From a virus (Duplodnaviria; Heunggongvirae; Uroviricota; Caudoviricetes), in the IMG/VR virus record IMGVR_UViG_2711768015_000005: DNA of 41,351 bases. One strand, given 5' to 3'. Both the position numbers and the translations under genes were made by a program. The notes beneath the pieces are model-generated. The model had not been told where the DNA came from, made no database searches, and saw only the letters and a list, made by a program, of their open reading frames with translations. Below are positions 10,648 through 38,249 of this stretch, piece after piece (positions within the stretch are counted from its first letter, which is position 1; each line of letters begins with the position of its first letter).

Positions 10648-10718
10648 TATTCCGCAAATCCTGCCCCCTTTTCCTCACGGTTACGCTGACTCAGAGAACA
10701 CCATGAGACAGCGTAACA

Positions 10719-11219
10719 ATGCCAAAACTCCCCGCACCCCTGCGTAAAAAGCTGATTGCCCTTGTTCTGGCCGGAGCCGGGACGTTCACCATTGCCACGC
10801 ACTACACCGGCTACTGGGAAGGGAAAGAAAACACCACGTACATTGATCCCACCGGCACCCCCACCATCTGTTACGGCCATACCGGCCCGGATGTGAAACC
10901 GGGGATGACAAAAACTGATGAAGAGTGTCTGGAGCTGCTGGAAAAGGACATGAAATGGGCCTTTGCGGCTATCGATCGTCATGTTCAGGTGCCGCTTACC
11001 CGTGGTCAGACGGTGGCGCTGGCCTCCTGGATTTTCTGGGCCGGTGAAACGAACTTTCGCAACTCCACGCTCCTGCGCCTTATCAATGCCGGGCAGATGC
11101 CCGCGTCCTGTAAGCAGTATATCCGCTGGATTTATTCAAAGGGGGTAAAACTCCCCGGTCTTGAGGCCCGCCGTTCGGCGGATGAATGGTTATGTCGTTA
11201 CGATTTGCCGAAAGTCTGA
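10719..11219 (+). CDS. lys: Endolysin, phage lysozyme with N-terminal signal-arrest-release (SAR) segment
   Basis: 166 aa; hydrophobic LIALVLAGAGTFTIA followed by a lysozyme-type region YWEGKENTTYIDPTGTPTICYGHTG. Confidence 0.8.
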   Translation: MPKLPAPLRKKLIALVLAGAGTFTIATHYTGYWEGKENTTYIDPTGTPTICYGHTGPDVKPGMTKTDEECLELLEKDMKWAFAAIDRHVQVPLTRGQTVALASWIFWAGETNFRNSTLLRLINAGQMPASCKQYIRWIYSKGVKLPGLEARRSADEWLCRYDLPKV

Positions 11220-11292
11220 ACCGCTTCTGGCGACCGCTCATGATTGCGCTGCTGTGTGCCGTTGTGCTGCTGCGGGGTGTGCTGTGTCTGCG

Positions 11293-11682
11293 GTGAACAA
11301 TCCCTTACCGGCCCTGATTGCCGGAGGCTGTATGGCGGCGCTGGGGGTGATGAGCGTGCTGGCTGCCGTGGTATGGGGAATGCACCAGAAGACGCAGCGC
11401 CTTGAGGACAATAATCATGTGCTTGTGCGTGAACGGGACGAAGCCCGTCTGGTGCTGGCAAACCAGCAACGCACCCTGCAACTCATTTCACAAATCAGCA
11501 AGGCGGCCACGAATGAAAAACAGCAGAACATGCAGCACAGCGAGGAACAGCAGAGCATTGTCCGCCGGTCACTGGCAACGGTGCCTGCTGCCGCTGTGCC
11601 TGTGCCTGATGATGTGGCTGACCGGGTGCGGCGGGCCGTCTGTGAAATACGTGCCGGTGAAGCCGGTGCCGATCCCCGCTGA
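11293..11682 (+). CDS. Putative i-spanin (Rz-like); start uncertain
   Basis: N-terminal TM segment LPALIAGGCMAALGVMSVLAAVVWG then charged coiled-coil-like region; directly after the endolysin; the frame is open from 11161. Confidence 0.5.
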   Translation: MNNPLPALIAGGCMAALGVMSVLAAVVWGMHQKTQRLEDNNHVLVRERDEARLVLANQQRTLQLISQISKAATNEKQQNMQHSEEQQSIVRRSLATVPAAAVPVPDDVADRVRRAVCEIRAGEAGADPR

Positions 11683-11884
11683 ATGGCTGGCTGACTGCCT
11701 GGTCCCTCCCGCGCCGCAGCCGTTCACGTTTGGTGCATCGGTCACTTACAACCTGCAACTGCTGGCGGTGATTAAAAACTGCAACGTGGACAAGGCCAGC
11801 ATCCGCCGTCTGGAGACACAGCGACAGCATGAATTTACTGATATGGCCGGAACGACTGCTGTTCCGGCAGGAAAGACGAAGTAA
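11513..11884 (+). CDS. Putative o-spanin lipoprotein (Rz1-like), overlapping the i-spanin in another frame
   Basis: Lipobox-like LTGC after a hydrophobic stretch; proline-rich; begins inside the i-spanin frame and extends beyond it. Confidence 0.5.
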   Translation: MKNSRTCSTARNSRALSAGHWQRCLLPLCLCLMMWLTGCGGPSVKYVPVKPVPIPAEWLADCLVPPAPQPFTFGASVTYNLQLLAVIKNCNVDKASIRRLETQRQHEFTDMAGTTAVPAGKTK

Positions 11885-11894
11885 GGAAAAAGGT

Positions 11895-12122
11895 ATGGAT
11901 GATTCAGATTGTGCTCAGGCAGTCATGGAGCGTGCAACAGAACGCGCCCTTTGTGACCGGCTGACACGTAAGCGCCGGGTGGCGGAGACACCGGGCAGGC
12001 GTGTATGCGCGGACTGCGGGGGTGACATTCCGGCTGCCCGTCTGGTTGCCGTGCCGGATGCCATCCGTTGTGTGAACTGCCAGAACATCATGGAGGCCGG
12101 TCATGTGGGTCAGCATCGTTAA
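11895..12122 (+). CDS. TraR/DksA-family C4 zinc-finger protein
   Basis: 75 aa from ATG 11895; CADCGGDIPAARL...IRCVNCQ four-cysteine motif. Confidence 0.6.
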   Translation: MDDSDCAQAVMERATERALCDRLTRKRRVAETPGRRVCADCGGDIPAARLVAVPDAIRCVNCQNIMEAGHVGQHR

Positions 12123-12414
12123 AGATTATGTCGTGCCGATCCTGTCGGCAACGGCCACAGCCGGGGGGATCTTCATGGCGCTGATGCGCAAAACCTTTGT
12201 CCCCCGCGAGGCCTTTGAAAAACTCTCCGACCGGGTTGAGCGGGTGGAGAGCCGGATTTCCGGCCTGCCCACGCAGCAGGAGGTGAACAGACTCAATATC
12301 GAAATCACCACCCTGCGCGGTGAGCTTAAGGCCACCAATGCCACCCTGAAATCCGTCTCCCATCAGAACGAACTGCTGCTGGAGCAGGCTGTAAGGAAAA
12401 AACACAATGAGTGA
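12103..12414 (+). CDS. Membrane-anchored coiled-coil protein (Mu-like, DUF2730-type)
   Basis: 103 aa; N-terminal TM VVPILSATATAGGIFMAL then coiled-coil-like region. Confidence 0.5.
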   Translation: MWVSIVKDYVVPILSATATAGGIFMALMRKTFVPREAFEKLSDRVERVESRISGLPTQQEVNRLNIEITTLRGELKATNATLKSVSHQNELLLEQAVRKKHNE

Positions 12415-12697
12415 TTTCATTACTGAAGATCAGCGTCTTGTCATTCTGCGGTCGCTGGCGGATTACAACGGCGAACTGGGCGAATCCGTGCTTCAGGACT
12501 GCCTGGATGATTACGGTCACCGCGTGTCCCGCGACACCGTTCATACCCACATTGCCTGGCTTGCCGAGCAGGGACTGGTGCGTAAGCGCACGCTTGTTAA
12601 CGGTTATTTCATCGCTGAACTGACCGGCCGGGGTCAGGATGTGGCGGAAGGCCGCGCCACCGTTCCGGGTGTGAAGAAACCACGCGCAAGGGGGTAA
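12407..12697 (+). CDS. Hypothetical protein (Mu gp26 position)
   Basis: 96 aa ORF between the membrane protein and the gp27-like gene. Confidence 0.5.
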   Translation: MSDFITEDQRLVILRSLADYNGELGESVLQDCLDDYGHRVSRDTVHTHIAWLAEQGLVRKRTLVNGYFIAELTGRGQDVAEGRATVPGVKKPRARG

Positions 12698-12699
12698 CG

Positions 12700-13281
12700 A
12701 TGGATAAGCCAGCGCGTGGCCGTGTACGCAAGGTGGATTTGCTCCCCGACAGCATCCGTAAGCCGCTGCTGGAAATGCTGCGTGAAAAACGTCTGACGCA
12801 GGTCCAGATCCGCGAGGAAATCAACCGTCTGATCCGTGAAGCAGGTCTGCCGGAAGAGCAGCAGCTCTCACCGGCGGCCATCAGCCGGGAAGCCTCCCGT
12901 AATGAGCTGATTGCCCGTAATCTGCGTGATTTACGCGAGCAGACAAAAGCCATGATGGCCGAACTGGGGGATAAGCCGACCGGTGAAACCACGGCACTGA
13001 TTCTGGAGATGTCCCGTGCCCTGATGTACCGCCGTCTGCGTGCCGCCACCGAATCCCTGAACAGCGACAGCGATGTGGATATGCGCCTTATTAAGGACAT
13101 CCTCCTGTCGGCACAGCGTGCAGAAAGTGCCGCCGAGCGCAGCATTAAGCGTGAAAAAGAAATCCGGGCCGCATTTGCTGAAGAGATGGCGAATGCGGTC
13201 ACCGATGAGTTGCGCGGCGTGGATGGCATGAGCGAGCAGATCGAATTCCGTATCAGGCAGATGCTGCTGGGTAAGGCGTAG
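12700..13281 (+). CDS. Mu gp27-like protein, putative terminase small subunit (DUF3486-type)
   Basis: 193 aa immediately upstream of the terminase large-subunit region. Confidence 0.65.
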   Translation: MDKPARGRVRKVDLLPDSIRKPLLEMLREKRLTQVQIREEINRLIREAGLPEEQQLSPAAISREASRNELIARNLRDLREQTKAMMAELGDKPTGETTALILEMSRALMYRRLRAATESLNSDSDVDMRLIKDILLSAQRAESAAERSIKREKEIRAAFAEEMANAVTDELRGVDGMSEQIEFRIRQMLLGKA

Positions 13282-13291
13282 GAGGTGAATC

Positions 13292-13540
13292 ATGGCAACA
13301 GATAACCGCTCACTGATGAGCAGTGCCCATCAGAAAGCATTCAGTCTTGCAACACAGTTACCTCCTGAAACCATAAAGGTATGTCGTGAGTTGACTGAAC
13401 TCAGCATTGCCGGGGAAATATCCCTGGAACAACTGCATTCGCTGCTGGCAGAGGCTGCCACTGATGAGTTGAGCGGCGTGGACGTGATGACTGAAGAGCT
13501 TGAGTCCCGAATCAAAAGCATTCTGACAGGTAAAGCATGA
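13292..13540 (+). CDS. Small protein sharing the C-terminal tail of the gp27-like protein
   Basis: 82 aa; C-terminus ATDELSGVDVMTEELESRIKSILTGKA versus gp27-like VTDELRGVDGMSEQIEFRIRQMLLGKA; stop overlaps terminase start. Confidence 0.55.
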   Translation: MATDNRSLMSSAHQKAFSLATQLPPETIKVCRELTELSIAGEISLEQLHSLLAEAATDELSGVDVMTEELESRIKSILTGKA

Positions 13541-15204
13541 TGAACAAAGCCAGAGAAACGTCGCCTTCACTGATGCAAATGACGCCTCCCCGCAAAATTG
13601 ATCTGTCAGGTGAAAAAGCCCTGCTGGGCGTGGATGTGCCGGACAGCCTTGATTTGCCCGGTGATATGCCGGTGTTTCTGGATTATCAGGCCCGCTGGTT
13701 TGCAGATGAAAGTCAGGTCTGCATCGCGGAGAAATCCCGCCGCACCGGTCTTACCTGGGCGGAAGCCGGGCGTAACGTCATTACTGCTGCAAAACCGAAG
13801 CGTCGTGGTGGCCGCAATGTGTTTTATGTGGGATCAAAGCAGGAGATGGCGCTGGAATATATTTCTGCCTGCGCGCTGTTCTCCCGTGCCTTTAACCAGC
13901 TGGCAGATGCTGATGTGTATGAGCAGACATTCTGGGATCGGGATAAAAAAGAAGAAATTTTGACCTACATGATCCGCTTTCCGAACAGTGGATTCAAAAT
14001 TCAGGCATTGTCTTCCCGTCCGTCAAACCTGCGCGGCCTTCAGGGGGATGTGGTGATTGATGAAGCCGCGTTCCACGAGTCACTGGATGAGCTTCTCAAG
14101 GCGGCAATGGCGCTCACTATGTGGGGCGCGCGCGTGCGTATTATCTCCACGCATAACGGCGTCGATAATCTGTTTAATCAGTACATTCAGGAAGCCCGCG
14201 AGGGGCGCAAGGATTACAGCGTCCACCGCATAACCCTGGATGATGCCATTGCGGACGGGCTGTACCGTCGTATCTGTTACGTCACCGATCAGGAATGGTC
14301 ACCGGAAAGCGAGCAGAAATGGCGTGATGATCTCTACAAAAACGCCCCGACCCGTGAGGATGCCGACGAGGAATACGGCTGTATCCCGAAAAAATCCGGC
14401 GGTGCCTATATCCCCCACGCGCTTATTGAAATGGCGATGATCCGCGACATCCCGATTCTGACGTTTGAAGCCCCGGACAACTTCATCAGCCGTGCCGCAT
14501 GGCTGCGTGAATCGGAAGTTTTAACCTGGTGTGAAGAACATTTAAAACCGCTTTTAGAGAAATTAAATCCCCGTTCCCGCTTCAGCTTCGGGGAAGACTT
14601 TGCCCGCACCGGTGACCTGTCCTGCTTTGTGCTGCTGGAAATCACCGAATCCCTGGCAAAGCGCGAGGTGTTTCGCGTGGAGCTGCGCAACCTGCCGTAT
14701 GCCCAGCAGGAACAGGTGATGATGTACATCCTGACCCGCGTTCCGGCGCTGGTCGGTGCGGCGTTCGACGCCACCGGTAACGGCGGCTATCTGGCAGAGG
14801 CCGCACTGCTGGCCTTTGGCCCGGACATCATCGACTGCGTGATGTTGTCGCCGAAGTGGTACGGCGAGTGGATGCCAAAACTGAAAGCCGAGTTTGAAGA
14901 TCAGAATATCCTCGTCGCCCGCCATCAGACCACGCTTGATGATTTGCGCCATGTGAAGGTAGTGAATGGTATCCCGCAAATCGACAAGGGGCGCACGAAG
15001 GACCAGAACGCAACGGCTGCGAACGCCCGCCGCCATGGTGATTTTGCCGTGGCGCTCTGTATGGCAAACCGGGCGTCATACATGGAGGGCTTCATCCTGG
15101 ATGAATCAGCCTGTCAGGCGCTACAGGAGCGGTCGCGGGCAATGGAGGGCGGTTATCGTGATGACGATGAGGCATATCATGAATTTGATCGGGGGGGCTG
15201 GTAG
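13537..15204 (+). CDS. Terminase large subunit (Mu gp28-like)
   Basis: 555 aa; position and size as Mu gp28; VVIDEAAFHE motif. Confidence 0.85.
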   Translation: MMNKARETSPSLMQMTPPRKIDLSGEKALLGVDVPDSLDLPGDMPVFLDYQARWFADESQVCIAEKSRRTGLTWAEAGRNVITAAKPKRRGGRNVFYVGSKQEMALEYISACALFSRAFNQLADADVYEQTFWDRDKKEEILTYMIRFPNSGFKIQALSSRPSNLRGLQGDVVIDEAAFHESLDELLKAAMALTMWGARVRIISTHNGVDNLFNQYIQEAREGRKDYSVHRITLDDAIADGLYRRICYVTDQEWSPESEQKWRDDLYKNAPTREDADEEYGCIPKKSGGAYIPHALIEMAMIRDIPILTFEAPDNFISRAAWLRESEVLTWCEEHLKPLLEKLNPRSRFSFGEDFARTGDLSCFVLLEITESLAKREVFRVELRNLPYAQQEQVMMYILTRVPALVGAAFDATGNGGYLAEAALLAFGPDIIDCVMLSPKWYGEWMPKLKAEFEDQNILVARHQTTLDDLRHVKVVNGIPQIDKGRTKDQNATAANARRHGDFAVALCMANRASYMEGFILDESACQALQERSRAMEGGYRDDDEAYHEFDRGGW

Positions 15205-16793
15205 TGGGACGCATCATTGATACTGACGGAAAACCTTTCTCCTTTGACCCGGAGATGCAGAGTGCCGCGCTGGATATTCCGCAGATTGCCAGCCGTTATA
15301 TTGAACATCCGGCTTCGGGTATCACCCCGAACCGGGCGGCGCAGTGCCTTCGCGGGGCTGAACGTGGCGATCTGATTGCCCAGTCCGATCTGGCCGCTGA
15401 TATTGAAGAAAAGGACACCCACCTTTTTGCGGAGCTGGGCAAGCGACGTCTTGCCATTCAGGGGGTGCCATGGAGTATTGAGCCGCCACCGAACGCCAGC
15501 GCGAATGAGAAAAAGGACGCGGAAATGCTCGACGAATATCTGCATTCCGCAGACTGGTTTGATGCCATGCTGTTTGACGCCACGGATGCCATCCTGAAGG
15601 GCTATTCCTGCATGGAAATTGAGCACGGGATGCTCGGTAAAATGCACATCATCCGCGCCATCCGCTGGCGTGACAGCGGGCATTTCTGCCTTAACCCGGA
15701 TGATTTGAGCGAACTGCGGCTGCGTGACGGCAGCCATGCCGGGGTGGCGTTTCAGCCCTTTGGCTGGATAGTGCATCAGTCGCGTTCACGCACCGGCTAC
15801 GGTGGTGCGACGGGGCTTGTCAGAACGCTTATCTGGCCGTTCATTTTCAAAAACTATTCCGTGCGCGATCTGGCGGAATTTCTGGAGGTGTACGGCCTGC
15901 CAATGAAGGTCGGGAAATACCCGTCCGGGGCAACACCGGAGCAGAAAAGTGCCCTGATGCGGGCGGTGATGGATATCGGGCGACGTACAGGCGGGATCAT
16001 CCCGGCCGGGATGTCGCTGGAGTTTCAGGCGGCAGCGAACGGTCAGGCCGATCCGTTTGAAACCATGATTTCGTGGGGTGAGCGTTCCATCTCCAAAGCA
16101 ATACTCGGCGGCACGCTGACCACAGAAGCCGGAGACAAAGGCGCGCGCTCGCTGGGTGAGGTGCATAACGAGGTGCGCCGGGAAATCAGGGATTCTGATT
16201 TACGCCAGCTGGCTGCAACCCTGAACCGCGATCTGGTGTATCCGCTGTATGCCCTGAACACCGCCCACGCCATTGATATCCGTCGCCTGCCGCGTATCTG
16301 TTTCCAGACCAAAGAACCGGGGGATATCACCAAAATAGCCAGTGCGGTGATGCAACTCAGTGCGGGGATGGATATTCCTGATCCCTGGGTACGGGATCAG
16401 ACCGGTATTCCACAGCCCACGCCCGGTGAAGCCATATTCCGTGTCCGTCAGAGCAGTAATGAACCGGCCATGCCTGACAGGGAAACGCTACCGGAAAAAC
16501 AGGAAAAGACAGAACAGACGGCGCTTTCAGCCCGACTGCCGGAAGCGAAAAACACGCCGCGTGATGAACTGGACGACATGGGGGACGCGGTGCCTGCCCG
16601 CCGCTTACAGGAGGCCATCGATCCGGTGCTGGAGCCGGTCATTGATGTCATCAGAACGCGGGGGCTGGCGGAGGCACTGGCAGACCTGCCTGCCCTTTAC
16701 CGTGAAATGGATGATTCCCGCCTGATGACGCTGCTCAGTGATGCCATGTTTGCTGCGGAAATGAAGGGGATGCTGGATGGCTCAGGGGATTGA
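15204..16793 (+). CDS. Portal protein (Mu gp29-like, DUF935)
   Basis: 529 aa directly after terminase, acidic C-terminus. Confidence 0.85.
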   Translation: MGRIIDTDGKPFSFDPEMQSAALDIPQIASRYIEHPASGITPNRAAQCLRGAERGDLIAQSDLAADIEEKDTHLFAELGKRRLAIQGVPWSIEPPPNASANEKKDAEMLDEYLHSADWFDAMLFDATDAILKGYSCMEIEHGMLGKMHIIRAIRWRDSGHFCLNPDDLSELRLRDGSHAGVAFQPFGWIVHQSRSRTGYGGATGLVRTLIWPFIFKNYSVRDLAEFLEVYGLPMKVGKYPSGATPEQKSALMRAVMDIGRRTGGIIPAGMSLEFQAAANGQADPFETMISWGERSISKAILGGTLTTEAGDKGARSLGEVHNEVRREIRDSDLRQLAATLNRDLVYPLYALNTAHAIDIRRLPRICFQTKEPGDITKIASAVMQLSAGMDIPDPWVRDQTGIPQPTPGEAIFRVRQSSNEPAMPDRETLPEKQEKTEQTALSARLPEAKNTPRDELDDMGDAVPARRLQEAIDPVLEPVIDVIRTRGLAEALADLPALYREMDDSRLMTLLSDAMFAAEMKGMLDGSGD

Positions 16794-18108
16794 TTTAGGT
16801 TATGCCGCCACGCTTCCCTCAAAAGAGACGGTGGCATACTTCCGCGCCAAAGGGGCGCATATCAGCTGGAACTGGTTCGAAACAGACGCGGATGTTCATG
16901 CCCGCTCATTCACGGCAGCAAAAACGGCACGGCTGGATGTGGTAACCACATTACAGGCCGAAGTGCAGCGGGCCATTGATGAGGGGATTTCACAGAAAGA
17001 ATTTATCCGCACACTGACGCCACGCCTGCAAAAGCTGGGATGGTGGGGAAAGCAGATTGTGGTGGACAGCGACGGTAACGCGGAAGAAGTGCAGCAGGGC
17101 AGTCCCCGTCGTCTGGCGCTGATTTACAACGTGAACACCCGTGTGGCTTACAATGCCGGGCGTTACACGCAGATGATGAACAACACGGACACGCATCCGT
17201 TCTGGCAGTATGTGGCGGTCATGGACAGCCGTACCCGCCCGTCGCATTCCGCCCTTAACGGTCTGGTATTCCGCTATGACGATCCGTTCTGGAAAACACA
17301 CTACCCGCCCAATGGCTGGAACTGCCGCTGCCGTGTGCGGCCATTGTCTCAGGCCCGTCTGGATGCAATGGGGTTATCCGTTTCATCCGGTGAGGATCAT
17401 CTCTCCACCCGCAATGTTGAGGCTGGCGTGGATAAACAGACCGGAGAAGTCAGAGAAATGCCGGTGACCACATATTCAGATGGCGCCAGAACCATGACAC
17501 CGGATGTGGGCTGGTCATATAACCCCGGCTCGGCAGCGTTCGGCACAGACCAGGCGCTGATCCGCAAACTGATCGAGGTGAAAAGCCCGGCGTTACGGGA
17601 AATGGTGGTTCAGGAGATGAACAACAGCCCGGAGCGGCAGCTGGCGTTCCGCATCTGGGCAAAAAACATCATGCAGACCCGGCGAGGTGGTAACGATATC
17701 CGCACGCTGGGCTTTATGACTGAAAGCATTGCGCAGGCAGTGGAAAGCCGGACGGGAACGCCACCGGCCCGCCTGCTGGCGATGAGCGGTAAAAATGTGC
17801 TCCATGCGGACAGTGTGAAACATCAGAATGACGGCATCGCTCTGACGCCGGAGGACTTCGGGCGCTTACCGGCAATGCTGGCAAGGCCAAAAGCGGTACT
17901 GTGGGACAAACGGCACAACAATCTGATGTATATCGTGGAAAATCAGGATGGCAGTGTGCAGATTGCCGTTAATGCACCGTACAGTCTGAAACGTCAGCCC
18001 GACAAACTGGATGTGATTGTGAATGCTTACCGGGTTATCAATATGGATAAGCTGAAATCGGATATCCGGGGCGGAATGCTTGAGGTGCTGGAAGGACAAA
18101 TTGATTAA
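16777..18108 (+). CDS. Head morphogenesis protein (Mu F / gp30-like)
   Basis: 443 aa following portal with overlapping start. Confidence 0.75.
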   Translation: MAQGIDLGYAATLPSKETVAYFRAKGAHISWNWFETDADVHARSFTAAKTARLDVVTTLQAEVQRAIDEGISQKEFIRTLTPRLQKLGWWGKQIVVDSDGNAEEVQQGSPRRLALIYNVNTRVAYNAGRYTQMMNNTDTHPFWQYVAVMDSRTRPSHSALNGLVFRYDDPFWKTHYPPNGWNCRCRVRPLSQARLDAMGLSVSSGEDHLSTRNVEAGVDKQTGEVREMPVTTYSDGARTMTPDVGWSYNPGSAAFGTDQALIRKLIEVKSPALREMVVQEMNNSPERQLAFRIWAKNIMQTRRGGNDIRTLGFMTESIAQAVESRTGTPPARLLAMSGKNVLHADSVKHQNDGIALTPEDFGRLPAMLARPKAVLWDKRHNNLMYIVENQDGSVQIAVNAPYSLKRQPDKLDVIVNAYRVINMDKLKSDIRGGMLEVLEGQID

Positions 18109-18193
18109 CGGTCAGTGGCGGGGGTCGAACCCGCATACATGATCCACCCGGAGGCAGGCACCGACTTTACCAGTTAAGCGTACACTGACCGCC
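18109..18193. other. Structured intergenic element between head genes F and G
   Basis: 9-bp outer stem CGGTCAGTG/CACTGACCG enclosing hairpin GCGGG-GGTCGAA-CCCGC; on the minus strand the hairpin loop reads TTCGACC (T-loop-like); followed by TGTTTATTTTAT. Confidence 0.35.
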
Positions 18194-18229
18194 TGTTTAT
18201 TTTATATTCATCCTTTATGCGGAGGCAAT

Positions 18230-18703
18230 ATGTCATCCATTGATGCAGCTGTCGTTGTTGACGTTACGCGTCTCCAGCGAGTGTTTGCCCGGCTTCAGTT
18301 TGTGGGCGGCGGAAAAGACCTGGCCCGCAGTGTGGCGGCGAGTCTTCTGTCATCGTCAGAAATGGCGTTTGAGCAGGAAAAAGAGCCGGATGGTGAACGC
18401 TGGCATGACTGGTCAGATCCTTACCGTGAGTGGCGTACCCGTAAGGGATACACGCCCGGCAAAATCCTGACGCTGAACGGCGATCTGGCCCGCCGCCTGA
18501 CCACGGATTATGGCGATACCTGGGCGCTGATTGGATCAAATGAACCTTATGCAGCCATTCATCAGTGGGGTGGCCTGCCTGGTATGCCACCGGGACCGGC
18601 GGCCATTGGCGCACGTCCGTATATGGGCTTTGATCAGGTGGCAGAACAGGAGATCATGGACGAAATCAGAAAACGCTTTAAAAAGGCCACAGAAACGCCG
18701 TAA
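18230..18703 (+). CDS. Virion morphogenesis protein (Mu G-like)
   Basis: 157 aa; position between F and I. Confidence 0.7.
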   Translation: MSSIDAAVVVDVTRLQRVFARLQFVGGGKDLARSVAASLLSSSEMAFEQEKEPDGERWHDWSDPYREWRTRKGYTPGKILTLNGDLARRLTTDYGDTWALIGSNEPYAAIHQWGGLPGMPPGPAAIGARPYMGFDQVAEQEIMDEIRKRFKKATETP

Positions 18704-18880
18704 TGGTTTAAGGTATGCAAACGTATTACCTTACCCCCTTCAGGCGCGTGTCGTGATTTTCTAACCTGTATTTAACGGGCTTTAAAATCTGCGTGAAGCG
18801 CCTTTCTCATTCCCCCCCTGTCAGCACTTTCTGAAGTCCCGCAAAACCAGCCCCAAAAATACCCGGCTTATGCTGCCGGT

Positions 18881-20014
18881 ATGAAGACAGAAAATCACCC
18901 AAAAGACGCAAATCGCCCCTCCGGTTTAGCCGTGCTTTCAGCTTCGCTGACTGCATCCGGCGACGGATGGTGTCAGTTACTGCCAGCCGGTCGGGTAAAG
19001 GCCCGTGACGGTCGCCCGGAAAAACCGACTGAAGGCTGGCTGATTAACGAATCCGCCTGTAACCGGATGAAAGCCGGGCTTTCCGCCCTGCATCAGCCGT
19101 TACTGATTGATTATGACCATCACTCCGTGAATGCGCAGAAAAACGGATTCAAGGCTATTGCTGCAGGATGGGTTAAGCCGGAAAACATCGAATGGCGTGA
19201 GGGTCAGGGGATTTTCATTAAACCTGAATGGACACCACAGGCACAAAAACATATTGATGACCGTGAATATGCCTATCTGTCTGCATATATGCATTATTTC
19301 GCTGACACCGGGGAACCCTACCTGTTGCGCATGGCTTCCCTGACGAATGATCCGGGTATTACGGGTATGAACCCTGTCGCGGCACTCAGTGCTGATGATC
19401 TCTATGTCGTTTCCCCTTCTCAGGAGCAATCCCCCATGAATGAGCAATTACGCCAGTTGCTGACGGCGCTCGGTCTGACCGTGGCTGACGGTGACGAATT
19501 TACACCGGAACTGGGCACGGCGGCGCTGTCTGCCCTTACCGGGATCAAAACCCGTGCGGATGCGCACGACACCCTGAAAACGCAGGTTGCCAGCCTGTCG
19601 GCAGAACTGGAAACCGCAAAAGGCACACCAACTGGCGGCACTATTGATCTGACGAAATATGTGCCCGTTGAGACGTATAACGCCCTGCGTACCGAATATG
19701 CCGCGCTGTCGGCACAACACGGCAGCACCACGCTGGAGCAGTTGCTGGATAAGGCCGAGTCCGAAGGACGCATTTTCAAAAGCGAACGCGGATACATGGA
19801 AGGACTCGGACAACAGATTGGCGTCGCGGCACTTTCTGCACAGCTTGACGCCCGCCAGCCGGTTGCGGCTCTGACCACTCTTCAGACCGACACCGTAACC
19901 GTGCCGGATAAAAAGACCGCCACCGCTGTGCTGTCGGCTGAAGATATCGCCGCCGCACGTCTGTTGGGTAAAACCGAAGCCGAGTTCCTGAAAATGAAAG
20001 AGGAAATGCAATAA
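18881..20014 (+). CDS. Head protease/scaffold protein (Mu I-like)
   Basis: 377 aa directly upstream of the major head subunit; Ala-rich coiled-coil-like C-terminal half. Confidence 0.75.
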   Translation: MKTENHPKDANRPSGLAVLSASLTASGDGWCQLLPAGRVKARDGRPEKPTEGWLINESACNRMKAGLSALHQPLLIDYDHHSVNAQKNGFKAIAAGWVKPENIEWREGQGIFIKPEWTPQAQKHIDDREYAYLSAYMHYFADTGEPYLLRMASLTNDPGITGMNPVAALSADDLYVVSPSQEQSPMNEQLRQLLTALGLTVADGDEFTPELGTAALSALTGIKTRADAHDTLKTQVASLSAELETAKGTPTGGTIDLTKYVPVETYNALRTEYAALSAQHGSTTLEQLLDKAESEGRIFKSERGYMEGLGQQIGVAALSAQLDARQPVAALTTLQTDTVTVPDKKTATAVLSAEDIAAARLLGKTEAEFLKMKEEMQ

Positions 20015-20961: not shown

Positions 20962-20965
20962 ACGG

Positions 20966-20989
20966 TGAGCCGGGCTTACGGCCCGGCCC
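20966..20989 (+). other. GC-rich stem-loop after the major head gene
   Basis: GCCGGGC-ttac-GGCCCGGC at about 20968-20987, no T-run. Confidence 0.4.
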
Positions 20990-21004
20990 CTGCGGAGGGC
21001 AAAT

Positions 21005-22340: not shown

Positions 22341-22343
22341 CAG

Positions 22344-24124: not shown

Positions 24125-24132
24125 GGTAAGGC

Positions 24133-24498: not shown

Positions 24499-24512
24499 TC
24501 AGGAAAAATGTA

Positions 24513-24989: not shown

Positions 24990-25113
24990 AGAAGCCGCAA
25001 TTGTGCTGGGGATGGTGACAAAAAGCGGCCCGGAGTGGGCGCTTAACCTCCCCTTATCGCAGCTTTACCGGCACTGCCGACAGACCGAAAAAATTCTCAG
25101 AACGAAGCAGTAA
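24967..25113 (+). CDS. Small ORF overlapping the chaperone 3' end, upstream of the tape measure gene
   Basis: 48 aa from ATG 24967 in a different frame, G-rich SD-like sequence upstream; the frame is open from 24919. Confidence 0.3.
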   Translation: MQCRDQIEEAAIVLGMVTKSGPEWALNLPLSQLYRHCRQTEKILRTKQ

Positions 25114-25116
25114 CCC

Positions 25117-30231: not shown

Positions 30232-30661
30232 TATTGCAATTGTATGGGATCAGGGGTGCGGTTCGCTGCAACTGAACGGTGCCGACTTGCTGACGGATGA
30301 CAGTCTGCTGACGGCCGTTCTGATTTCGCTGTTTACTGACCGCCGGGCGCTGGCATCGGATGAAATCCCTGACGGTACGCGCGACCGCCGGGGATGGTGG
30401 GGAGACAGTTTTCGCCCGCGCCCCATTGGCTCCCGTCTGTGGCTTCTCAGCCGGGAAAAAACGCTGGCCTCGGTGATAAGCCGTGCCCGTGCTTACGCGG
30501 ATGAGGCGCTGGGCTGGCTCAGTCAGGATGGCGTGGCGTCATCCGTGGTCTGTCATGCAGAACGTGTGGGACACGCGCGGCTGGCGCTTTCGGTGCGCAT
30601 AACCCTGCCTGATGGTTCAGTGAGGCCCATGATTTTTTATGCTGATCTTAAGGGGGAGTAA
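30224..30661 (+). CDS. Baseplate protein (gpW/gp25-like, Mu gp46 position)
   Basis: 145 aa from ATG 30224 (MADIAIVWDQG...), overlapping V stop. Confidence 0.65.
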   Translation: MADIAIVWDQGCGSLQLNGADLLTDDSLLTAVLISLFTDRRALASDEIPDGTRDRRGWWGDSFRPRPIGSRLWLLSREKTLASVISRARAYADEALGWLSQDGVASSVVCHAERVGHARLALSVRITLPDGSVRPMIFYADLKGE

Positions 30662-31743: not shown

Positions 31744-32294
31744 CCCTGACCCCGCATCAGCGCGCCCTGTTGCAGTTACTGCCTGACGGGCTGGCATGGG
31801 ACAAGCGTCCGTCATCCGTACTGGCATCATTATGTCTGGGCCTCAGTCATTCGACAGCGCGTGTATCCTGGACGGGTAAACAGCTGCTTGCCGAGCGTTT
31901 CCCTGACACGTCGCGCCTGCTGCTGGAAGACTGGGAGCGTTATCTCGGGCTTCCCGAGTGTGATATGGCCGGAGCCACCCTCACGGAGCGACAGCGTTAT
32001 GCCGGAAATAAATACCGGATGAAGCCCTCGCTGAACCGTGAATTTTATATCCGGTTTGCGGCGGAGTTTGGTTATCAGATTGACATTCAGCCCTCACCGG
32101 ATTCGCAGTGGGTCAGTATTGTCACGATTAACAGTGAAACCGGCTACCGGAATATGAATGTGCTGGATGATATTCTCACGCCGCTGCGTATTTATGAAGG
32201 CGGTGCGCTGGAATGTATTCTGAACCGTTATAAGCCTGCATGGCAGACGTTTATTTACGTTTATGCAAACAGCCATGAAGAGGAGACTATTTAA
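31734..32294 (+). CDS. Tail protein (Mu gp48-like, DUF2313-type)
   Basis: 186 aa directly upstream of the tail fibre gene. Confidence 0.65.
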
Positions 32295-33175
32295 TGTTTC
32301 ATGTTGATAATAATTCCGGCGTGGCGAATATGCCTGCGCTGGCACCGGCGCAGAGTAATACCACCACCTGGTTTACCGAAGGTGACGGACAAAAAGGTAT
32401 CAGCTGGATTGGTCAGGACTGGCTGAATATTCTCCAGGCCGAACTGCTGAATATTCTGGCTGAAGCCAGTATTCAGCCGGATAAGGCGCAGTTAAACCAG
32501 CTTACGCTGTCCATTAAAGCCATTATCGCTGCGAATGCCTTTTCCCGGAAAAATAACCTGAAAGAAATTGCTGATGCCGGTGCGGAGGCCCAGCGTCTGG
32601 CCCGTGGTTATCTTGGTCTGGGGACGCTTGCCACAAAAAACAGTCTTGGTCCCGCTGACGTTAATGCCCTGGCGAAGGATCAGAATCTCGCCGACCTGGA
32701 GAATAAGGGAACCGCCCGTAATAATCTGGATGTTTACAGCAAAAGCGAAGGTGATAACCGTTACCTGCGCAGGGAGCAGAACGGCGCAGACATTCCGGAT
32801 AAAGGGGCTTTTATCGATAACGTCGGTTTACGGGAAACGGTAAACAGGGCGGCGAATGCCCTGCCATCGGACGGCACCGCCGTTGCCGCGAACAGGCTGG
32901 CAAATGCCCACACAATTAATGGTGTTCCCTTTGACGGGACGCAGGATATCACTATCTCATCAGGAACAGTAACCGCCATAAGACTGGGGTCGGTGACCGC
33001 ACATATGCCCGGAACATGGGAAAGCTGGGATCTGAATCTGGGGGGCGGCAATGTTCTTACCGGAATTAAAGTACAGGATGTCGGTAAGAATACGGCAGAT
33101 AACGTCGGCGGCGTGTATTACCGGCCGTTGCAGTATCTGTTAAATGGAGCATGGGTGACGGCTGCAAGTATATAA
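32294..33175 (+). CDS. Tail fibre protein S: constant N-terminal part plus currently joined variable C-terminus
   Basis: 293 aa; crosses the left gix-like site at 32810-32835; residues after GLRETVNR... differ from the inverted cassette. Confidence 0.8.
32810..32835 (+). promoter_or_regulatory. Left gix/hix-like invertase crossover site inside the tail fibre gene
   Basis: TTATCGATAACG-TC-GGTTTACGGGAA; resembles Gin/Hin recombination sites (AAAACC..GGTTT half-sites around a central dinucleotide). Confidence 0.65.
32825..32892 (+). repeat. Left inverted repeat of the invertible tail-fibre segment (68 bp)
   Basis: Reverse complement of 34073-34139 with one mismatch. Confidence 0.85.
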
Positions 33176-33184
33176 TGATATTCA

Positions 33185-33208
33185 GAAGGCCTTCCGGCCT
33201 TCTTTATT
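33185..33208. terminator. Hairpin terminator between convergent S and tail-fibre assembly genes
   Basis: GAAGGCC-ttcc-GGCCTTC followed by TTTATT. Confidence 0.6.
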
Positions 33209-33728
33209 ACTGTGGCTGCTCAGGCCATTTAATGGCGTTAAATTCAGCTTCTGTTTTAATGGCGGGTAGTTCCATTTTCTTCACCTGACTGATGTATGCC
33301 ATCCATTGGGTAAGTGCTGCTCTGTCTTCATCGCTGATGGTGCCCAGTTGTAGCTCCGTTCTCCAGTCATTAATTTTTTCATATGCCTGATTAAGATATG
33401 ACTGGCGCATTGCTTCCAGTTTTCTTGCGTAGTTAACCGGAATACGGGAGATTATGCCATTATCAAACTTCCAGTTTCCTGAAATATCCGTGCCTTCAGG
33501 GAGTTCATCGACCTCAACCACAGAAAACCCCGCAGGATACAGCGCCGAGGCGTCCTGTGATATTGAGCAGATAACGCCGCTGTCAGGTGTTATGCAAAGT
33601 TTATATTTTTTGGTGAATAATGGCAGGGATTCGTAGAAATCCTTACCATCTTCACTCTGGAAATACTGAACATTATTACCATATGGCATATTTTCAGGAT
33701 AATAACGGGTTATATTTTTTAGTTCCAT
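33207..33728 (-). CDS. Tail fibre assembly protein (Tfa/U-like) in the inverted cassette
   Basis: 173 aa minus-strand ORF directly downstream (on the minus strand) of the alternative fibre C-terminus. Confidence 0.75.
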   Translation of the reverse strand: MELKNITRYYPENMPYGNNVQYFQSEDGKDFYESLPLFTKKYKLCITPDSGVICSISQDASALYPAGFSVVEVDELPEGTDISGNWKFDNGIISRIPVNYARKLEAMRQSYLNQAYEKINDWRTELQLGTISDEDRAALTQWMAYISQVKKMELPAIKTEAEFNAIKWPEQPQ

Positions 33729-33779
33729 AAAATCCTCCTGGAAATAAATCTGTTTTAAAATATATTATTTACTGACTAT

Positions 33780-34145
33780 TTATAACTGAGATACCGTAAT
33801 CCATGTACCTCCGACTAATTTTTGCAGGGGTCTGAATGCTATAAAATCGTTTGAAGCATCAACTTTACTGTCAATCTGCAGGCCTGCCATAACATTACCG
33901 TACGCAGAGTAATATGCCCCACCGTACATTACCTGCCTGTTCTCTGCTCCCAGCCTGATATCCTGGATATATCGGGAATCCGCATCCTGCTGTGTTATAC
34001 CAGAAGTGATGTTTATGTCCTGCGTCCCGTCAAAGGGAACCCCATTAATATTTCTTGGGGTGGCGAGTCTATTCGCGGCAACGGCGGTGCCGTCCGATGG
34101 CAGAGCATTCGCCGCCCTGTTTACCGTTTCCCGTAAACCGAGGTT
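33780..34145 (-). other. Alternative tail-fibre variable C-terminal cassette, inverted and without its own start codon
   Basis: Minus-strand frame open from 34145 encodes [49 protein letters not shown]...GGTWITVSQL*; first ~22 aa identical to S at the repeat, then divergent. Confidence 0.75.
34073..34139 (-). repeat. Right inverted repeat of the invertible segment
   Basis: Reverse complement matches 32825-32892. Confidence 0.85.
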
Positions 34146-34153
34146 TTCAGGAA
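34128..34153 (-). promoter_or_regulatory. Right gix/hix-like crossover site
   Basis: Minus strand reads TTCCTGAAAACC-TC-GGTTTACGGGAA. Confidence 0.65.
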
Positions 34154-34218
34154 AGCCAGGATTAACTCTGTTTTATTCCTCATGCGACAATTCCGGCTTT
34201 TTATAATAAGGAAATCGT

Positions 34219-34847
34219 ATGCTGATTGGGTATATCAGGGTGTCAACAAATGACCAGAATACGGCGCTACAAAGAAATGNNNNNNNNNNNNNNNNNNNNN
34301 NNNNNNNNNNNNNNNNNNNNNNNNNNNNNNNNNNNNNNNNNNNNNNNNNNNNNNNNNGCTGTTTTTCGAAGACAGAATAAGCGGTAAGACAAGGGAGCGT
34401 CCCGGACTTAAACGCGCATTAAAGCGACTCCGGCCAGGGGATACCCTGCTGGTCTGGAAACTGGATCGCCTTGGACGCAGTATGCAGCACCTTGTCCTTT
34501 TAACAGAAGAACTCCGGCAACGCGGCGTTAACTTCCGCAGCATTACGGACAATATTGATACATCCACTCCCATGGGACGTTTCTTTTTCCATATAATGGG
34601 CGCGCTGGCGGAAATGGAGCGGGAACTCATTATTGAACGTACACGCGCGGGTCTTGCTGCTGCCCGTGCTCAGGGGCGTCATGGCGGCAGACCTCAGAAA
34701 CTGACAGAGAAAGAGCGGGAGCAAATCGCCCGTTTGCTGGCTAATGGCGAGTCCCGTAAACAAATCGCACTGATATTTGATATTGGCCTTTCCACCCTTT
34801 ATCGTTATTTTCCTGCCTCACCAGCTCCGTCACCAAAAGTACCGTGA
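34219..34847 (+). CDS. gin: Gin/Hin/Pin/Cin-family serine DNA invertase, interrupted by an assembly gap (Ns at 34280-34357)
   Basis: MLIGYIRVSTNDQNTALQRN...[gap]...LFFEDRISGKTRERPGLKRALKRLRPGDTLLVWKLDRLGRSMQHL...GRFFFHIMGALAEMERELIIERT closely parallels Mu Gin; the N-run changes the reading frame, so its length is not the real gap. Confidence 0.9.
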
Positions 34848-34932
34848 CGCTTTTTTGAATTTCCGCAAAACACATATTTTTCAGCGGTCGCTATTCTGAC
34901 TCTGTTTAATTCAGAAACAGGCAGAAAAGACG

Positions 34933-36987
34933 ATGTCAGACTCCAAGTGGAAAATGCTCTCCGCCATGCCCGGAGAGTTTTCAGTCAAGGTTGCCGGTGG
35001 CACGGTGGCATTTATTGAAAGCCCTTTCCGCCCTTCGGGTAATAAAGGGGGGATCACCTTCGCAGACTGCGTGATCCGCTTCAGCACGAAAGAGCCATTA
35101 TGGGTAATGCCGGTATCCGGTAATCCCAGTGCAGAAATCACCAGTTCAGGCGTGACTGGCATCATTCCAATCACATCTGACGTGGCCGGAACGCTCACGC
35201 CCTCCGACTGGAATGCACCGGATAACGCCGGGCCTTCCGGTAGCACGAATGGCAGCAGTTCAGAGCCGGAATATTACTTTGTTGTCATTCTCGCGGGTCA
35301 GTCAAATGGCATGGCCTACGGCGAGGGGCTGCCGTTACCGGATTCGTTTGACCGCCCGGACCCACGCATTAAGCAACTGGCACGCCGCAGTACGGTAACG
35401 CCCAACGGTACGTCGTGTACATACAACGACATCATTCCGGCAGACCACTGCCTGCATGATGTTCAGGATATGAGCGGGATAAACCACCCGAAAGCTGATC
35501 TGGCAAAAGGCCAGTACGGGACTGTCGGTCAGGGGTTGCATATTGCCAAAAAACTGCTTCCCTATATCCCACAGAATGCCGGGATACTTCTGGTGCCCTG
35601 TTGTCGTGGCGGGTCAGCATTCACCACTGGAGCCGACGGCTCATTCAGTGAGGCCAGCGGTGCTTCCGCTGATTCTTCACGCTGGGGGGCCGGTAAACCT
35701 CTGTATCAGGACCTGGTAAGCCGCACCAAAGTCGCGCTGGCGAAAAACCCGAAAAACAAACTTCTGGCTGTGGTCTGGATGCAGGGAGAGGCAGACCTTG
35801 CCTCAGGAAGCCAGCAGCATAATAGTTTATTCACGGCCATGGTTCAGCAGTTCAGAACTGACCTGGCTCCGCTTGCTGCGCAGTGCGTGAGTGGAAATGC
35901 CACCACGGTGCCGTGGATTTGCGGTGATACCACGTATTACTGGAAAAACGCTGGCACCGATAAATATGAGGCAGTATACGGTGGCTACAAAGGCAAGGAA
36001 GCACAGAAAATTTTCTTTGTACCGTTCCTGACGGATGAGAATGGACAGAGCACGCCAACGAATGCTCCGGCGGAAGACCCGGATATTGTGGCTGTCGGGT
36101 ATTACGGTGCAGCATCCCGAACCCAGGGCAGTTTTGTTTCGACACAGCGTGACAGCCATTTCAGCTCATGGGCACGCAGGGGCGTCATTTCAGACCGTCT
36201 GGCCTCAGCTATTATGCTCCATGCAGGGCGCACGGCTGAACTGATGCGTGGGCAGACCGTGACACCACCGGATGAGAAGCCGTCACCTGATACACCATCA
36301 AAACCGTCCACGCCACCCGCAGACACCACGACGATGAGTACGCTATTTGCTTACCGGGCATCTGAGTCTGAAGGACGGTTGACACCACAGGGTTGGGCTG
36401 CCGGAGGTGGCAAGGCTCAAATCGTGGATGATGCCGGAGCCAGCGGGGGTAAGGCAATGAAACTGACCAAGGAAACAGGAAGAGCCCCCTGGTACCTTGA
36501 GCATGATGCTGGTAATGGTGCGGACCTGCTGGGTAAAGGTGGTCTTGTCAGTTGTCGTTTTAAACTCGATGGCGCGCTTACGGCTAATCAGTACGCACTG
36601 GCGCTGTACTGGCCGGTTTCTGCCCTGCCGCAAGGGGTTACTCTGGAAGGAAATGCCGGTCATAACCTGCTGGCATCGTTCTACGTACAGAGCGATGCCA
36701 CAGACCTTAACGTGATGTATCACAAAGGAAACACGGCGCAGAACACGAAGCTGGGGTCATTCGGCGCATTTAATAACGAATGGCATACGCTGGGCTTCCG
36801 TTTTGCCGGTAACAACAGTATTGAGGTGACGCCGGTCATTGATGGTAAGGACGGGACACCATTCATGCTGTCGCAGTCTCCGGTCGGCACGTTTACGGCA
36901 GACAAGTTGCGCGTGACCGATATCACTAAAAATGCGACTTACCCGGTACTGATTGACAGTATCGTGGTGGAAGTGAATAACGCGTAA
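34933..36987 (+). CDS. Cargo protein: SGNH/sialate-O-acetylesterase-like domain, Pro/Thr-rich linker, lectin-like C-terminal domain
   Basis: 684 aa; esterase-type GQSN motif in VVILAGQSNGMAYGEG; linker PPDEKPSPDTPSKPSTPPADTTT; ~210-aa C-terminal domain; no signal peptide; located where Mu carries only com-mom. Confidence 0.55.
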   Translation: MSDSKWKMLSAMPGEFSVKVAGGTVAFIESPFRPSGNKGGITFADCVIRFSTKEPLWVMPVSGNPSAEITSSGVTGIIPITSDVAGTLTPSDWNAPDNAGPSGSTNGSSSEPEYYFVVILAGQSNGMAYGEGLPLPDSFDRPDPRIKQLARRSTVTPNGTSCTYNDIIPADHCLHDVQDMSGINHPKADLAKGQYGTVGQGLHIAKKLLPYIPQNAGILLVPCCRGGSAFTTGADGSFSEASGASADSSRWGAGKPLYQDLVSRTKVALAKNPKNKLLAVVWMQGEADLASGSQQHNSLFTAMVQQFRTDLAPLAAQCVSGNATTVPWICGDTTYYWKNAGTDKYEAVYGGYKGKEAQKIFFVPFLTDENGQSTPTNAPAEDPDIVAVGYYGAASRTQGSFVSTQRDSHFSSWARRGVISDRLASAIMLHAGRTAELMRGQTVTPPDEKPSPDTPSKPSTPPADTTTMSTLFAYRASESEGRLTPQGWAAGGGKAQIVDDAGASGGKAMKLTKETGRAPWYLEHDAGNGADLLGKGGLVSCRFKLDGALTANQYALALYWPVSALPQGVTLEGNAGHNLLASFYVQSDATDLNVMYHKGNTAQNTKLGSFGAFNNEWHTLGFRFAGNNSIEVTPVIDGKDGTPFMLSQSPVGTFTADKLRVTDITKNATYPVLIDSIVVEVNNA

Positions 36988-37002
36988 GCAGGATAAAAAA
37001 AT

Positions 37003-37035
37003 GCCGCCGGTAAGGGAAAACAAGAAACCGGCGGC
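37003..37035. terminator. Terminator-like hairpin after the esterase gene
   Basis: GCCGCCGGT-(15 nt)-ACCGGCGGC flanked by A-runs on the + strand, so T-runs on the minus strand. Confidence 0.45.
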
Positions 37036-37131
37036 AAAAAGATCGTTATATCCAAAGCAAAAAATGCAGTGCACCTTTTTACCTAACAGATATTACCGGT
37101 GTCAACACCATGTCAATAATTGGGAGGGATA

Positions 37132-37314
37132 ATGACATTTTTACAGCTTATTTTATTGTATTTCTGCACGGCAGTATGTGCGTTATATCTGGTGAGTGGT
37201 GGTTATAAGGCCATCAGAAATTATGTTCGCCGCAAAATTGAGGACGCAGCAGCTGAAAAACTCAGTAAAACAGCGCAGGTAACTCCGCTCCCAAAAGACC
37301 CGACCCAGCCCTGA
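37132..37314 (+). CDS. Small single-pass membrane protein
   Basis: 60 aa from ATG 37132 with GGGAGGG SD; TM helix FLQLILLYFCTAVCALYLVSGG then basic tail. Confidence 0.45.
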   Translation: MTFLQLILLYFCTAVCALYLVSGGYKAIRNYVRRKIEDAAAEKLSKTAQVTPLPKDPTQP

Positions 37315-37349
37315 TTGCAGGGCTTTATTCCCGCATAAGGAGGATATAC

Positions 37350-37604
37350 ATGCCAGAAATTAAAGGCACCGTCACTGAAGACCTGGTAAAACAGGCACTG
37401 TATTCCGGTGAAGTAAATAAGTTGCTGAAAGCGCAGGTCCGCAAGGATTTTGAGGCACAAATCGACACTTACGTTGATGAAGTGCTGGCAAAACTTATTG
37501 GGCCAGCAGTTGCGGCCAGTGATGCTGATAATGAGCCGAAAACCGACGCGCAGCCAGAGCAACCAGACCCGGCTCAGCCCGGAACTGACAGTACCATGAT
37601 GTAA
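37350..37604 (+). CDS. Small acidic protein
   Basis: 84 aa with strong SD AAGGAGG 8 nt upstream; acidic Pro/Gln-rich C-terminus. Confidence 0.5.
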   Translation: MPEIKGTVTEDLVKQALYSGEVNKLLKAQVRKDFEAQIDTYVDEVLAKLIGPAVAASDADNEPKTDAQPEQPDPAQPGTDSTMM

Positions 37605-37771
37605 CAATACAAACCGGTGGTGTCCTCTGCCGGTTTGACACTAATGAAAACATCTTTGCCGCTATCCAGCCATATGTAATCGCTGGATAGTATTTCGTAT
37701 TCAGAAATATAGCTGCTTATGGAGCAGTCAATCCTGCTTCCCCATCCGGGCAGGCAAATGAACCGGTATCA

Positions 37772-38065
37772 TTAGTCCGATTCACGCTTTTGTAGAATCG
37801 TTCCCAGAATGCTATACAGCTCATTAGCCTGTTGCTCCATCATTGAGACGGAGGCTATACGGTGCAAAGTGATTTCAGGAGGTGGCACACCTCCATCTTC
37901 TTGCTGTGGAGGAAAAACATAAGATTTAATAAAAAAGTTGAAGCATATGAACTCTCCCGCACTCGAACTGTATTTGCAGGCATCTGAATAATCGGAAAAA
38001 TAATCATTATAGATTTCCGCATTTTCAATCATTTTTCGATTTCTCGTCGTTACATGATTGTCCAT
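37772..38065 (-). CDS. Hypothetical protein, divergent from com-mom, in an AT-rich segment
   Basis: 97 aa minus-strand ORF with AAGAGG SD 6 nt upstream of ATG. Confidence 0.45.
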   Translation of the reverse strand: MDNHVTTRNRKMIENAEIYNDYFSDYSDACKYSSSAGEFICFNFFIKSYVFPPQQEDGGVPPPEITLHRIASVSMMEQQANELYSILGTILQKRESD

Positions 38066-38249
38066 AGCAGCCTCTTACGCTGGCAATTAACCAATTGACT
38101 TCTATAAATTAGTTGATTTGTTTGCTTTGCGGTATTCAAATGTACAATCATTCAGCACTTATGCGTTACAGCACCGTTTAAAATTAGTGATCAAACTCAT
38201 AAATTTTCGCTAATGACATTTCGTGTTATTTGTTGTATCAATTAAATAA

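Follow-up and report, generated by a model that had tools for sequence, protein, structure and literature searches.

The 41,351-nt DNA stretch IMGVR_UViG_2711768015_000005 (Caudoviricetes), called the window here at its full length, contains a Mu-like Escherichia coli prophage at approximately 653-39341. In this prophage, the heptamer CCGCAAA is probably the promoter-proximal half of the predicted binding site for the sole Mor/C-family protein encoded in the window, and three promoters would carry this site: Plys before the lysozyme gene lys, PI before the protease/scaffold gene I, and Pest before a gene for a NanS-p-family sialate O-acetylesterase (Table 1). A previous, sequence-only reading of this DNA had proposed a common late promoter architecture, possibly driven by a single Mor/C activator, for lys, I, the esterase gene and a small divergent open reading frame (ORF). 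The regulator class it named is well supported by promoter architecture, genome position, conservation and covariation. The same is true of the shared architecture at lys, at I and at the esterase gene, whereas for the divergent ORF it is not supported.

An Extended Box at Three Intergenic Sites

In full, the element consists of an imperfect dyad of 19-21 bp, yTTT(a/c)CTGA-N5-CGCAAA (dyad form TTTnCnG-N5-CnGnAAA), followed after 22-23 nt by a TAnnnT -10 hexamer and devoid of a -35 element. The dyad is centred at -45/-44 relative to the starts predicted from the -10 hexamers. All three combinations of box and -10 are intergenic and oriented toward the downstream gene, and the sites agree beyond chance at 15-16 of 19 positions, to which the -10 at fixed distance is added. 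A consensus scan of the three sites for an ordinary sigma-70 -35/-10 pair returned none.

Within the window the element is restricted to these sites. There are just three copies of the 18-mer TTTYTGAWNTYCCGCAAA, those at the lys, I and esterase sites, and the pattern CCGCAAA-N21-24-TANNNT was found three times against 0.27 expected. A looser regular expression for box and -10 also gave three matches, compared to a mean of 0.087 and a maximum of 1 in 300 dinucleotide shuffles, and both searches picked the same three sites. On a position matrix these sites score 30-32 bits and the next best site 14.6 bits. A matrix made from the sites of other phages alone still ranks them first, with 24.0, 22.5 and 20.3 bits.

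At Plys the dyad spans 10640-10658 and is centred at about -45, with the stop codon of the activator gene overlapped by its distal half, and the region aligns with Plys of Mu (TAGACTGCCATCAGAG). Plys and PI have an identical 16-mer, CCGCAAAWCCWGCCCC, and a C-rich tract directly after the box (CCTGCCCC at lys, CCAGCCCC at I; common core CCnGCCCC). The sequence-only reading had pointed to CCCCCTT near both genes. The C-rich tract behind the lys and I boxes is real, but the CCCCCTT copy at 18734-18740 lies about 100 nt upstream of the PI box and is irrelevant. Transcription is predicted to start at about 10693-10695 from Plys and at about 34903-34905 from Pest, where TATTCTGACTC resembles TACGCTGACTC of Plys.

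In the window and in every CGCAAA-type (group-1) relative, the end of the PI -10 and the I ATG are separated by 6-7 nt, and there is no Shine-Dalgarno sequence. Since the -10 of the window ends 6 nt before the ATG and a Shine-Dalgarno sequence is lacking, the mRNA of I is predicted to be leaderless. This -10/ATG geometry was seen at 18869-18883 in the window, at ~18590-18640 in locus L004, at ~10620-10650 in L013 and at the I sites of L130-L136.

The Sole Mor/C-Family Activator and Its Relatives

Only the gene at 10225-10647 gave a significant tblastn match to the Mor/C family in the window. Over 136 aa, its product shares 40% identity with Mu C; with Mu Mor the identity is 28%. As in Mu, lys follows directly behind the gene. 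A strong terminator (10159-10182) separates it from gemA. A near-match to the 16-mer of Plys and PI at 10155-10170 was rejected, as it is the stem of this terminator behind gemA.

Homologues of C with their flanks were gathered from public contigs and IMG/VR. Of two scans of genome contigs with C, the first gave no locus and the second only two Pasteurellaceae loci, and the phage GenBank collection contained no intermediate relatives. Relatives with 42-100% identity in C have the box both behind C and ahead of I. In phages with a C 42-84% identical to that of the window, Haemophilus prophages included, it recurred directly after C, and again just before I wherever the fetched DNA of the relative extends that far. 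The Plys box is conserved in L006, L010, L011 and L014 and has equivalents in L013, L131-136, L129/130 and L124/L166, and homologues of the PI box precede I in L010, L004, L013, L130, L131, L132, L135 and L136. In L013 (C 50% identical) the Plys region has the box GTTACTGAGTCGCCGCAAAC and TACTCT 22 nt past the box, 23 nt from CCGCAAA. In L131-136 (C 55%) the box is GTTACTGAACTACCGCAAAT and TACTCT follows 21 nt past it, 22 nt from CCGCAAA, and in the Haemophilus loci L124/L166 (C 42-44%) the box CTCTAATTTTCCGCAAAC is followed by TACACT at these same two distances. The spacing from box to TAnnnT is thus held at 22-23 nt in the relatives, while the spacer sequences diverge. A regular expression search of the relatives' loci found the expected sites only, with one stray match in ~290 kb.

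The box changes together with the protein that is expected to read it. C proteins with the helix I(I/V)R(E/N/A/V)Q, a residue other than Arg at Mu position 98 and a small residue at position 73 occur with CGCAAA-type boxes. Mu-type C proteins have the helix IIARQRK with R98 and Q73 and occur with CC(A/G)(T/G)AATCC boxes, the variants being CCATAATCC, CCGGAATCC or AATAACC. In short form, IRxQ pairs with CGCAAA and the Mu-type IARQ with ATAAT. Across 15 proteins, the box difference tracks C positions 73, 98, 116, 119 and 120 (Mu numbering), and positions 73, 98, 116 and 120 of Mu C contact DNA in the structure of the C transcription complex (bioRxiv 10.1101/2025.05.02.651988). Because the box covaries with the recognition helix of C, we infer that it is the operator of the activator, and this is the strongest argument for that assignment. 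Since the box difference tracks the contact positions of C, the window box evidently represents a different specificity class within the Mor/C family and not a Mu C site. Among the Mu-type C proteins (L138-L144, L145/146, L167 and Mu itself, L147), residue 116 is Q, D or K and pairs with CCATAATCC, CCGGAATCC and AATAATAACC. This pairing appears to be a second layer of protein-site covariation.

A Proposed Late Transcription Programme

After induction, C would be made and would bind the dyad at about -55 to -35, where a -35 element would be. By analogy with Mu, bound C would recruit or activate the host sigma-70 RNA polymerase at these promoters without a -35. Plys would then serve the lysis and head-packaging genes through a transcript with a 25-nt leader to the lys ATG, and PI would serve protease/scaffold, capsid and probably the genes downstream of these through its leaderless mRNA. 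Pest, with a 29-nt leader to the esterase ATG, would serve the NanS-p-like esterase, probably along with DUF1378 and DUF826. Early transcription after induction would read into the C gene, either by passing the terminator at 10159-10182 or by starting at a promoter that escaped recognition. The cascade of this prophage is probably a two-step one rather than the three-step cascade of Mu.

Several points weigh against this assignment of the three promoters. Firstly, the matrices and regular expressions were partly built from the sites that they score, and scores of 21 bits turn up now and then in shuffled windows when the matrix from other phages is used. Secondly, the only truly independent loci are L013, L131-137, L129/130, L004 (for PI) and those of Haemophilus, the O157-type Plys and PI being close homologues, and conservation of Pest is seen in two lineages only. 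The Salmonella locus L004 (C 67%) has a canonical box before I and an aberrant Plys (~10424-10520), with CCGCAGA and no properly spaced CTGA half. Thirdly, the distal half of Pest in the window reads TTGA and not CTGA. Lastly, the parallel with Mu is incomplete. No box precedes com-mom in the window, L010, L126, L195 or L196, and neither a site in N like PP of Mu nor any other fourth site of at least 15 bits was found in the window, except the one at 4271 on the minus strand. This best off-target box, ACTGTCTGAGTTTCCACAAAC at 4251-4271 (-) inside B, scores 14.6-17 bits, has no properly spaced -10 and is weaker in L010, and it is probably a chance match.

The assignment would provide a late transcription map for a common type of Mu-like prophage of E. 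coli and Shigella that is kin to the Mu-like insertions in O157 Shiga toxin (Stx) phages, as well as natural covariation data that bear on DNA reading by Mor/C-family activators. A further prediction is that the late activator of the phage turns on a mucin-sugar esterase, which would be off in the lysogen.

The Esterase and Its Promoter

Residues 110-428 of the esterase match E. coli NanS (PDB 3pt5; E = 1.8e-117) and residues 469-683 match the C-terminal domain of NanS-p (6yp6; E = 7e-98). At the DNA level, the similarity to the many lambdoid nanS-p loci has an abrupt edge at 35263 (codon 111), from where it continues into DUF1378, and the esterase is evidently a chimera with its junction at 35263. 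Pest and the first 110 codons (34933-35262) are confined to two E. coli Mu-like lineages. The sharp start of the lambdoid similarity indicates that promoter and first 110 codons are specific to these lineages. For residues 1-112 there was no Pfam or PHROG match even at E = 5, and DUF1737 is not found there. A homologue search with the N-terminus returned E. coli/Shigella fragments only and no distant homologues, and AlphaFold run on its single sequence gave no fold, with a predicted local distance difference test score (pLDDT) of 34. DUF1378 and DUF826 are probably co-transcribed with the esterase from Pest, as they lie on the same strand and no convincing terminator was found in 36987-37604.

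The esterase is found behind gin in two lineages only, the window type and an O157 type (L010, L070-L075, L096, L126), and the region from gin to the esterase is ~68% identical between them. The O157-type Pest box, CTTTACTGAATTAACGCAAAA, is identical at 17 of 21 positions and TAnnnT is kept at 22 nt (TATGAT in L010), while the spacer is scrambled. Retention of box and -10 across a scrambled spacer argues for selection and not for a scar. In L007-L009, which have lost most of gin, the Pest box is identical and the promoter intact.

The nanS-p gene of Stx phages is located in their late region (PMC10462455). NanS-p of phi24B is described as a capsid-decoration protein anchored by an N-terminal DUF1737 (bioRxiv 10.64898/2026.04.10.717836). 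Late control of the copy in a Mu-like phage would therefore be in character, and production of the esterase is probably confined to lytic growth. The sequence-only reading had suggested lytic control for both cargo units. For the esterase this agrees with the sequence architecture and the conservation in the second lineage; for the divergent ORF, box and spacing fail. A literature search on nanS-p in Mu-like phages and on late promoters of Mu-like prophages retrieved nothing specific to either. A more speculative and rather unlikely extension is that the esterase, instead of being passive cargo, is a late virion-associated protein whose 110-aa N-terminus replaces the DUF1737 anchor and which is supplied for assembly by its own C-type promoter. 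If true, and taken with the covariation of helix and box, it would make the Mor/C specificity code readable (Mu positions 73/98/116/119/120 versus CGCAAA or ATAAT), and decoration of phages with a mucin-sugar esterase would have a second, independent example.

Alternative Explanations

The sequence-only reading had located CCGCAAA correctly at 10652-10658, 18839-18845 and 34863-34869 on the plus strand and at 38126-38132 on the minus strand, and its distances from heptamer to start codon are right as well (61 nt for lys, 36 for I, 64 for the esterase and 61 for the divergent ORF). In its full form it would make all four upstream copies, including that of the divergent ORF, activator-dependent late promoters, by which both cargo units would be lytic. 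The copy at 38126-38132 has points in common with the other sites: it stands at the same 61 nt from its ATG as the lys copy does, TTTGAAT precedes it as at Pest, and it is kept in the close relatives L007-L009. Its matrix score, however, is below 8 bits, against 30-32 for the three sites, the distance between its TTGA and CGCAAA halves is 4 nt instead of the 5 nt seen at every other site, and the closest -10-like hexamer, TATAGA, lies at 19 nt and not at 22-23. The divergent ORF and its upstream DNA are absent from the O157-type lineage (L010), and about 0.6-1.3 chance copies of CCGCAAA are expected in intergenic DNA (2 x 2,605 nt x shuffle or observed frequency). An activator promoter for the divergent ORF is not supported by its sequence, and a system of four such promoters seems improbable.

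The conserved spacing of 61-64 bp between motif and ATG, on which this four-promoter arrangement had been based, does not hold either, since the I site breaks the rule. The real constant is the 22-23 nt from heptamer to -10, and the 61-64 bp are a by-product of similar leader lengths and not the constraint. An enrichment of CCGCAAA at 55-70 nt upstream of starts is present in number, with four copies against 0.23 expected. This distance window was picked after seeing the data, and one of the four copies (7972) is intragenic and has no other promoter feature.

A second alternative is that the box is real but has another role, as the site of a host nucleoid protein or of a repressor/Ner, or as a scar of a Plys duplication, and that in the lysogen an ordinary constitutive promoter drives the esterase, after the manner of classical lysogenic-conversion genes. 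The C-rich tract of Plys and PI is missing at Pest, which also counts against the activator assignment, and the likeness of TATTCTGACTC to the core of Plys could mean a duplication. NanS-type esterases are usually discussed as fitness factors of lysogens. Against this stand the lack of a usable -35 for TATTCT, with no sigma-70 match at that place, and the retention of box and -10 beside a scrambled spacer in the second lineage. In addition, the covariation with contact residues points to C, and the late position of nanS-p in Stx phages (PMC10462455) and the presence of its product in the phi24B virion also weigh against this alternative. We therefore give this alternative little credit and prefer C as the protein that would act at the box.

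As for the bare heptamer, CCGCAAA occurs 21 times in the window against 10.05 +/- 3.07 in dinucleotide shuffles. This roughly two-fold enrichment is real but mostly coding, for which reason it was rejected as the signal: out of 20 copies in the prophage, 16 are within coding sequence, for the most part sense-strand and in one reading frame, and the intergenic DNA, 6.7% of the prophage, holds the other four (binomial P = 0.04). The heptamer by itself is weak evidence. That CCGCAAA is merely a common word set by composition or codon usage, with functionless copies upstream of genes, would fit the coding copies and the slight intergenic enrichment and stands for the other 18 copies, but it is very improbable for the three sites, where it is contradicted by the 15-16 shared positions of 19 with a fixed -10 and by a box that recurs at homologous positions as far as Haemophilus and covaries with the activator helix.

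Prophage Context

An almost identical copy of the prophage is present in a RefSeq genome, and its annotation transfers to the window gene for gene. The nearest deposited phages are Mu-like phages inserted in Stx phages, with 92-93% identity over the late region; identity to Mu DNA is ~72% and in patches only. The early side has the order repressor, ner, A, B, early genes, gam, gemA, Mor/C-family gene, lysozyme, and packaging and head genes. On the late side, G, I, T and the tail genes are followed by a remnant of the invertible segment, gin, the esterase, DUF1378, DUF826, the divergent ORF, com and mom.

In gin, 78 N at 34280-34357 stand in for 22 nt (a masked stretch), and the gene is intact in the identical RefSeq prophage. 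That prophage carries the annotation 'tRNA-OTHER' at L003 19174-19253, which corresponds to ~18110-18189 (-) of the window; ARAGORN predicted no tRNA in the whole window. Between G and PI, GATTTTCTAACCTGTATTTAACGG (18745-18775) resembles the Mu sequence beside the strong gyrase site (Mu ~17905-17931), and the spacer 18704-18826 is highly conserved in L006 and L010.

Table 1. Genes and predicted promoter elements, in window coordinates.
Feature	Position	Strand	Remarks
gemA	9642-10154		
Late activator gene of the Mor/C family (140 aa, C orthologue)	10225-10647	+	Pfam PF08765, E = 6.7e-31
Plys activator box (predicted) CTTTTCTGATATTCCGCAAAT	10639-10659	+	31.7 bits; 24.0 bits with other-phage matrix
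Plys -10 (predicted) TACGCT	10682-10687	+	23 nt after heptamer (22 past box)
lys (lysozyme)	10719-11219	+	ATG at 10719
PI activator box (predicted) ACTTTCTGAAGTCCCGCAAAA	18826-18846	+	30.3 bits
PI -10 (predicted) TATGCT	18869-18874	+	23 nt after heptamer (22 past box); 6 nt before I ATG at 18881
I	18881-20014	+	start codon fixed by alignment of the I N-terminus
gin	34219-34847		stop at 34847
Pest activator box (predicted) CTTTTTTGAATTTCCGCAAAA	34850-34870	+	directly after gin stop; 31.8 bits; 22.5 bits with other-phage matrix
Pest -10 (predicted) TATTCT	34892-34897	+	22 nt after heptamer (21 past box)
NanS-p-family sialate O-acetylesterase gene (684 aa)	34933-36987	+	Pfam SASA PF03629 and DUF6645 PF20350; probably served by Pest
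DUF1378 gene	37132-37314	+	Pfam
DUF826 gene	37350-37604	+	Pfam
Small divergent ORF	37772-38065	-	
Heptamer copy upstream of divergent ORF	38126-38132	-	judged chance, outside the system
com	38322		followed by mom
mom	38476-39213		

Comparison with Known Systems

The closest known system is that of the C-dependent late promoters of Mu. Mu C binds an imperfect dyad that is centred at -43.5 and overlaps the -35 region, with bases -52 to -34 being required, and at the C-activated Plys, PI, PP and Pmom promoters there are -10 hexamers and no -35 (PMC2582627). Both promoter sets thus share a -10 without a -35, and the dyad centre of Mu compares with about -44/-45 in the window, where start sites are predicted from the -10. 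When the four annotated late promoters of Mu are aligned, CCATAAC begins 30 nt before the -10, which is the offset of CCGCAAA from TACGCT and TATGCT in the window. In both phages a Mor/C-family activator gene lies directly upstream of lys, and Mu has late promoters after C, before I and directly after gin, where the matching sites of the window are found.

The differences are equally clear. The Mu box is TTAT-N6-ATAA/CCATAAC (16 bp) and that of the window CTGA-N5-CGCAAA (19 bp), so that the Mu recognition sequence is not found, and 5 of the 11 residues with which Mu C contacts DNA differ in the window activator. PP of Mu lies inside N, and N of the window has no such site. The PI transcript of Mu has a 26-nt leader, in contrast to the leaderless one predicted here. 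The promoter behind gin drives com-mom in Mu and would drive the esterase in the window. Pest as a captured ancestral Pmom was considered and rejected, as the 5 kb upstream of mom are free of the box in the esterase-less group-1 loci L195/L196. Upstream of com-mom (38213-38321), the window has no activator box but keeps GATC sites in a palindromic cluster (38254-38278) for which the Dam/OxyR region of Mu mom is the homologue, and L010, L126, L195 and L196 agree with the window in this. With the Mor/Pm system of Mu, the window activator shares its protein family and the class of promoter architecture (PMC2582627), but the window has neither a Mor orthologue nor a middle operon; behind gemA come a terminator and then C. 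The three promoters would therefore belong to a known class with a new specificity, which adds no new regulatory principle and would not surprise a specialist.

For the esterase, the comparison is with lambdoid NanS-p (933W, phi24B gp84), with which it shares the SASA catalytic and the C-terminal domains. In lambdoid nanS-p loci the DNA similarity runs from the esterase into DUF1378, and in the window DUF1378 and DUF826 follow the esterase. Expression of lambdoid NanS-p is bound to the late programme of the phage (PMC10462455). There, nanS-p is part of a Q-antiterminated late operon and its product has an N-terminal DUF1737, whereas the window gene appears to have its own activator-type promoter and encodes an unrelated N-terminus of 110 aa.

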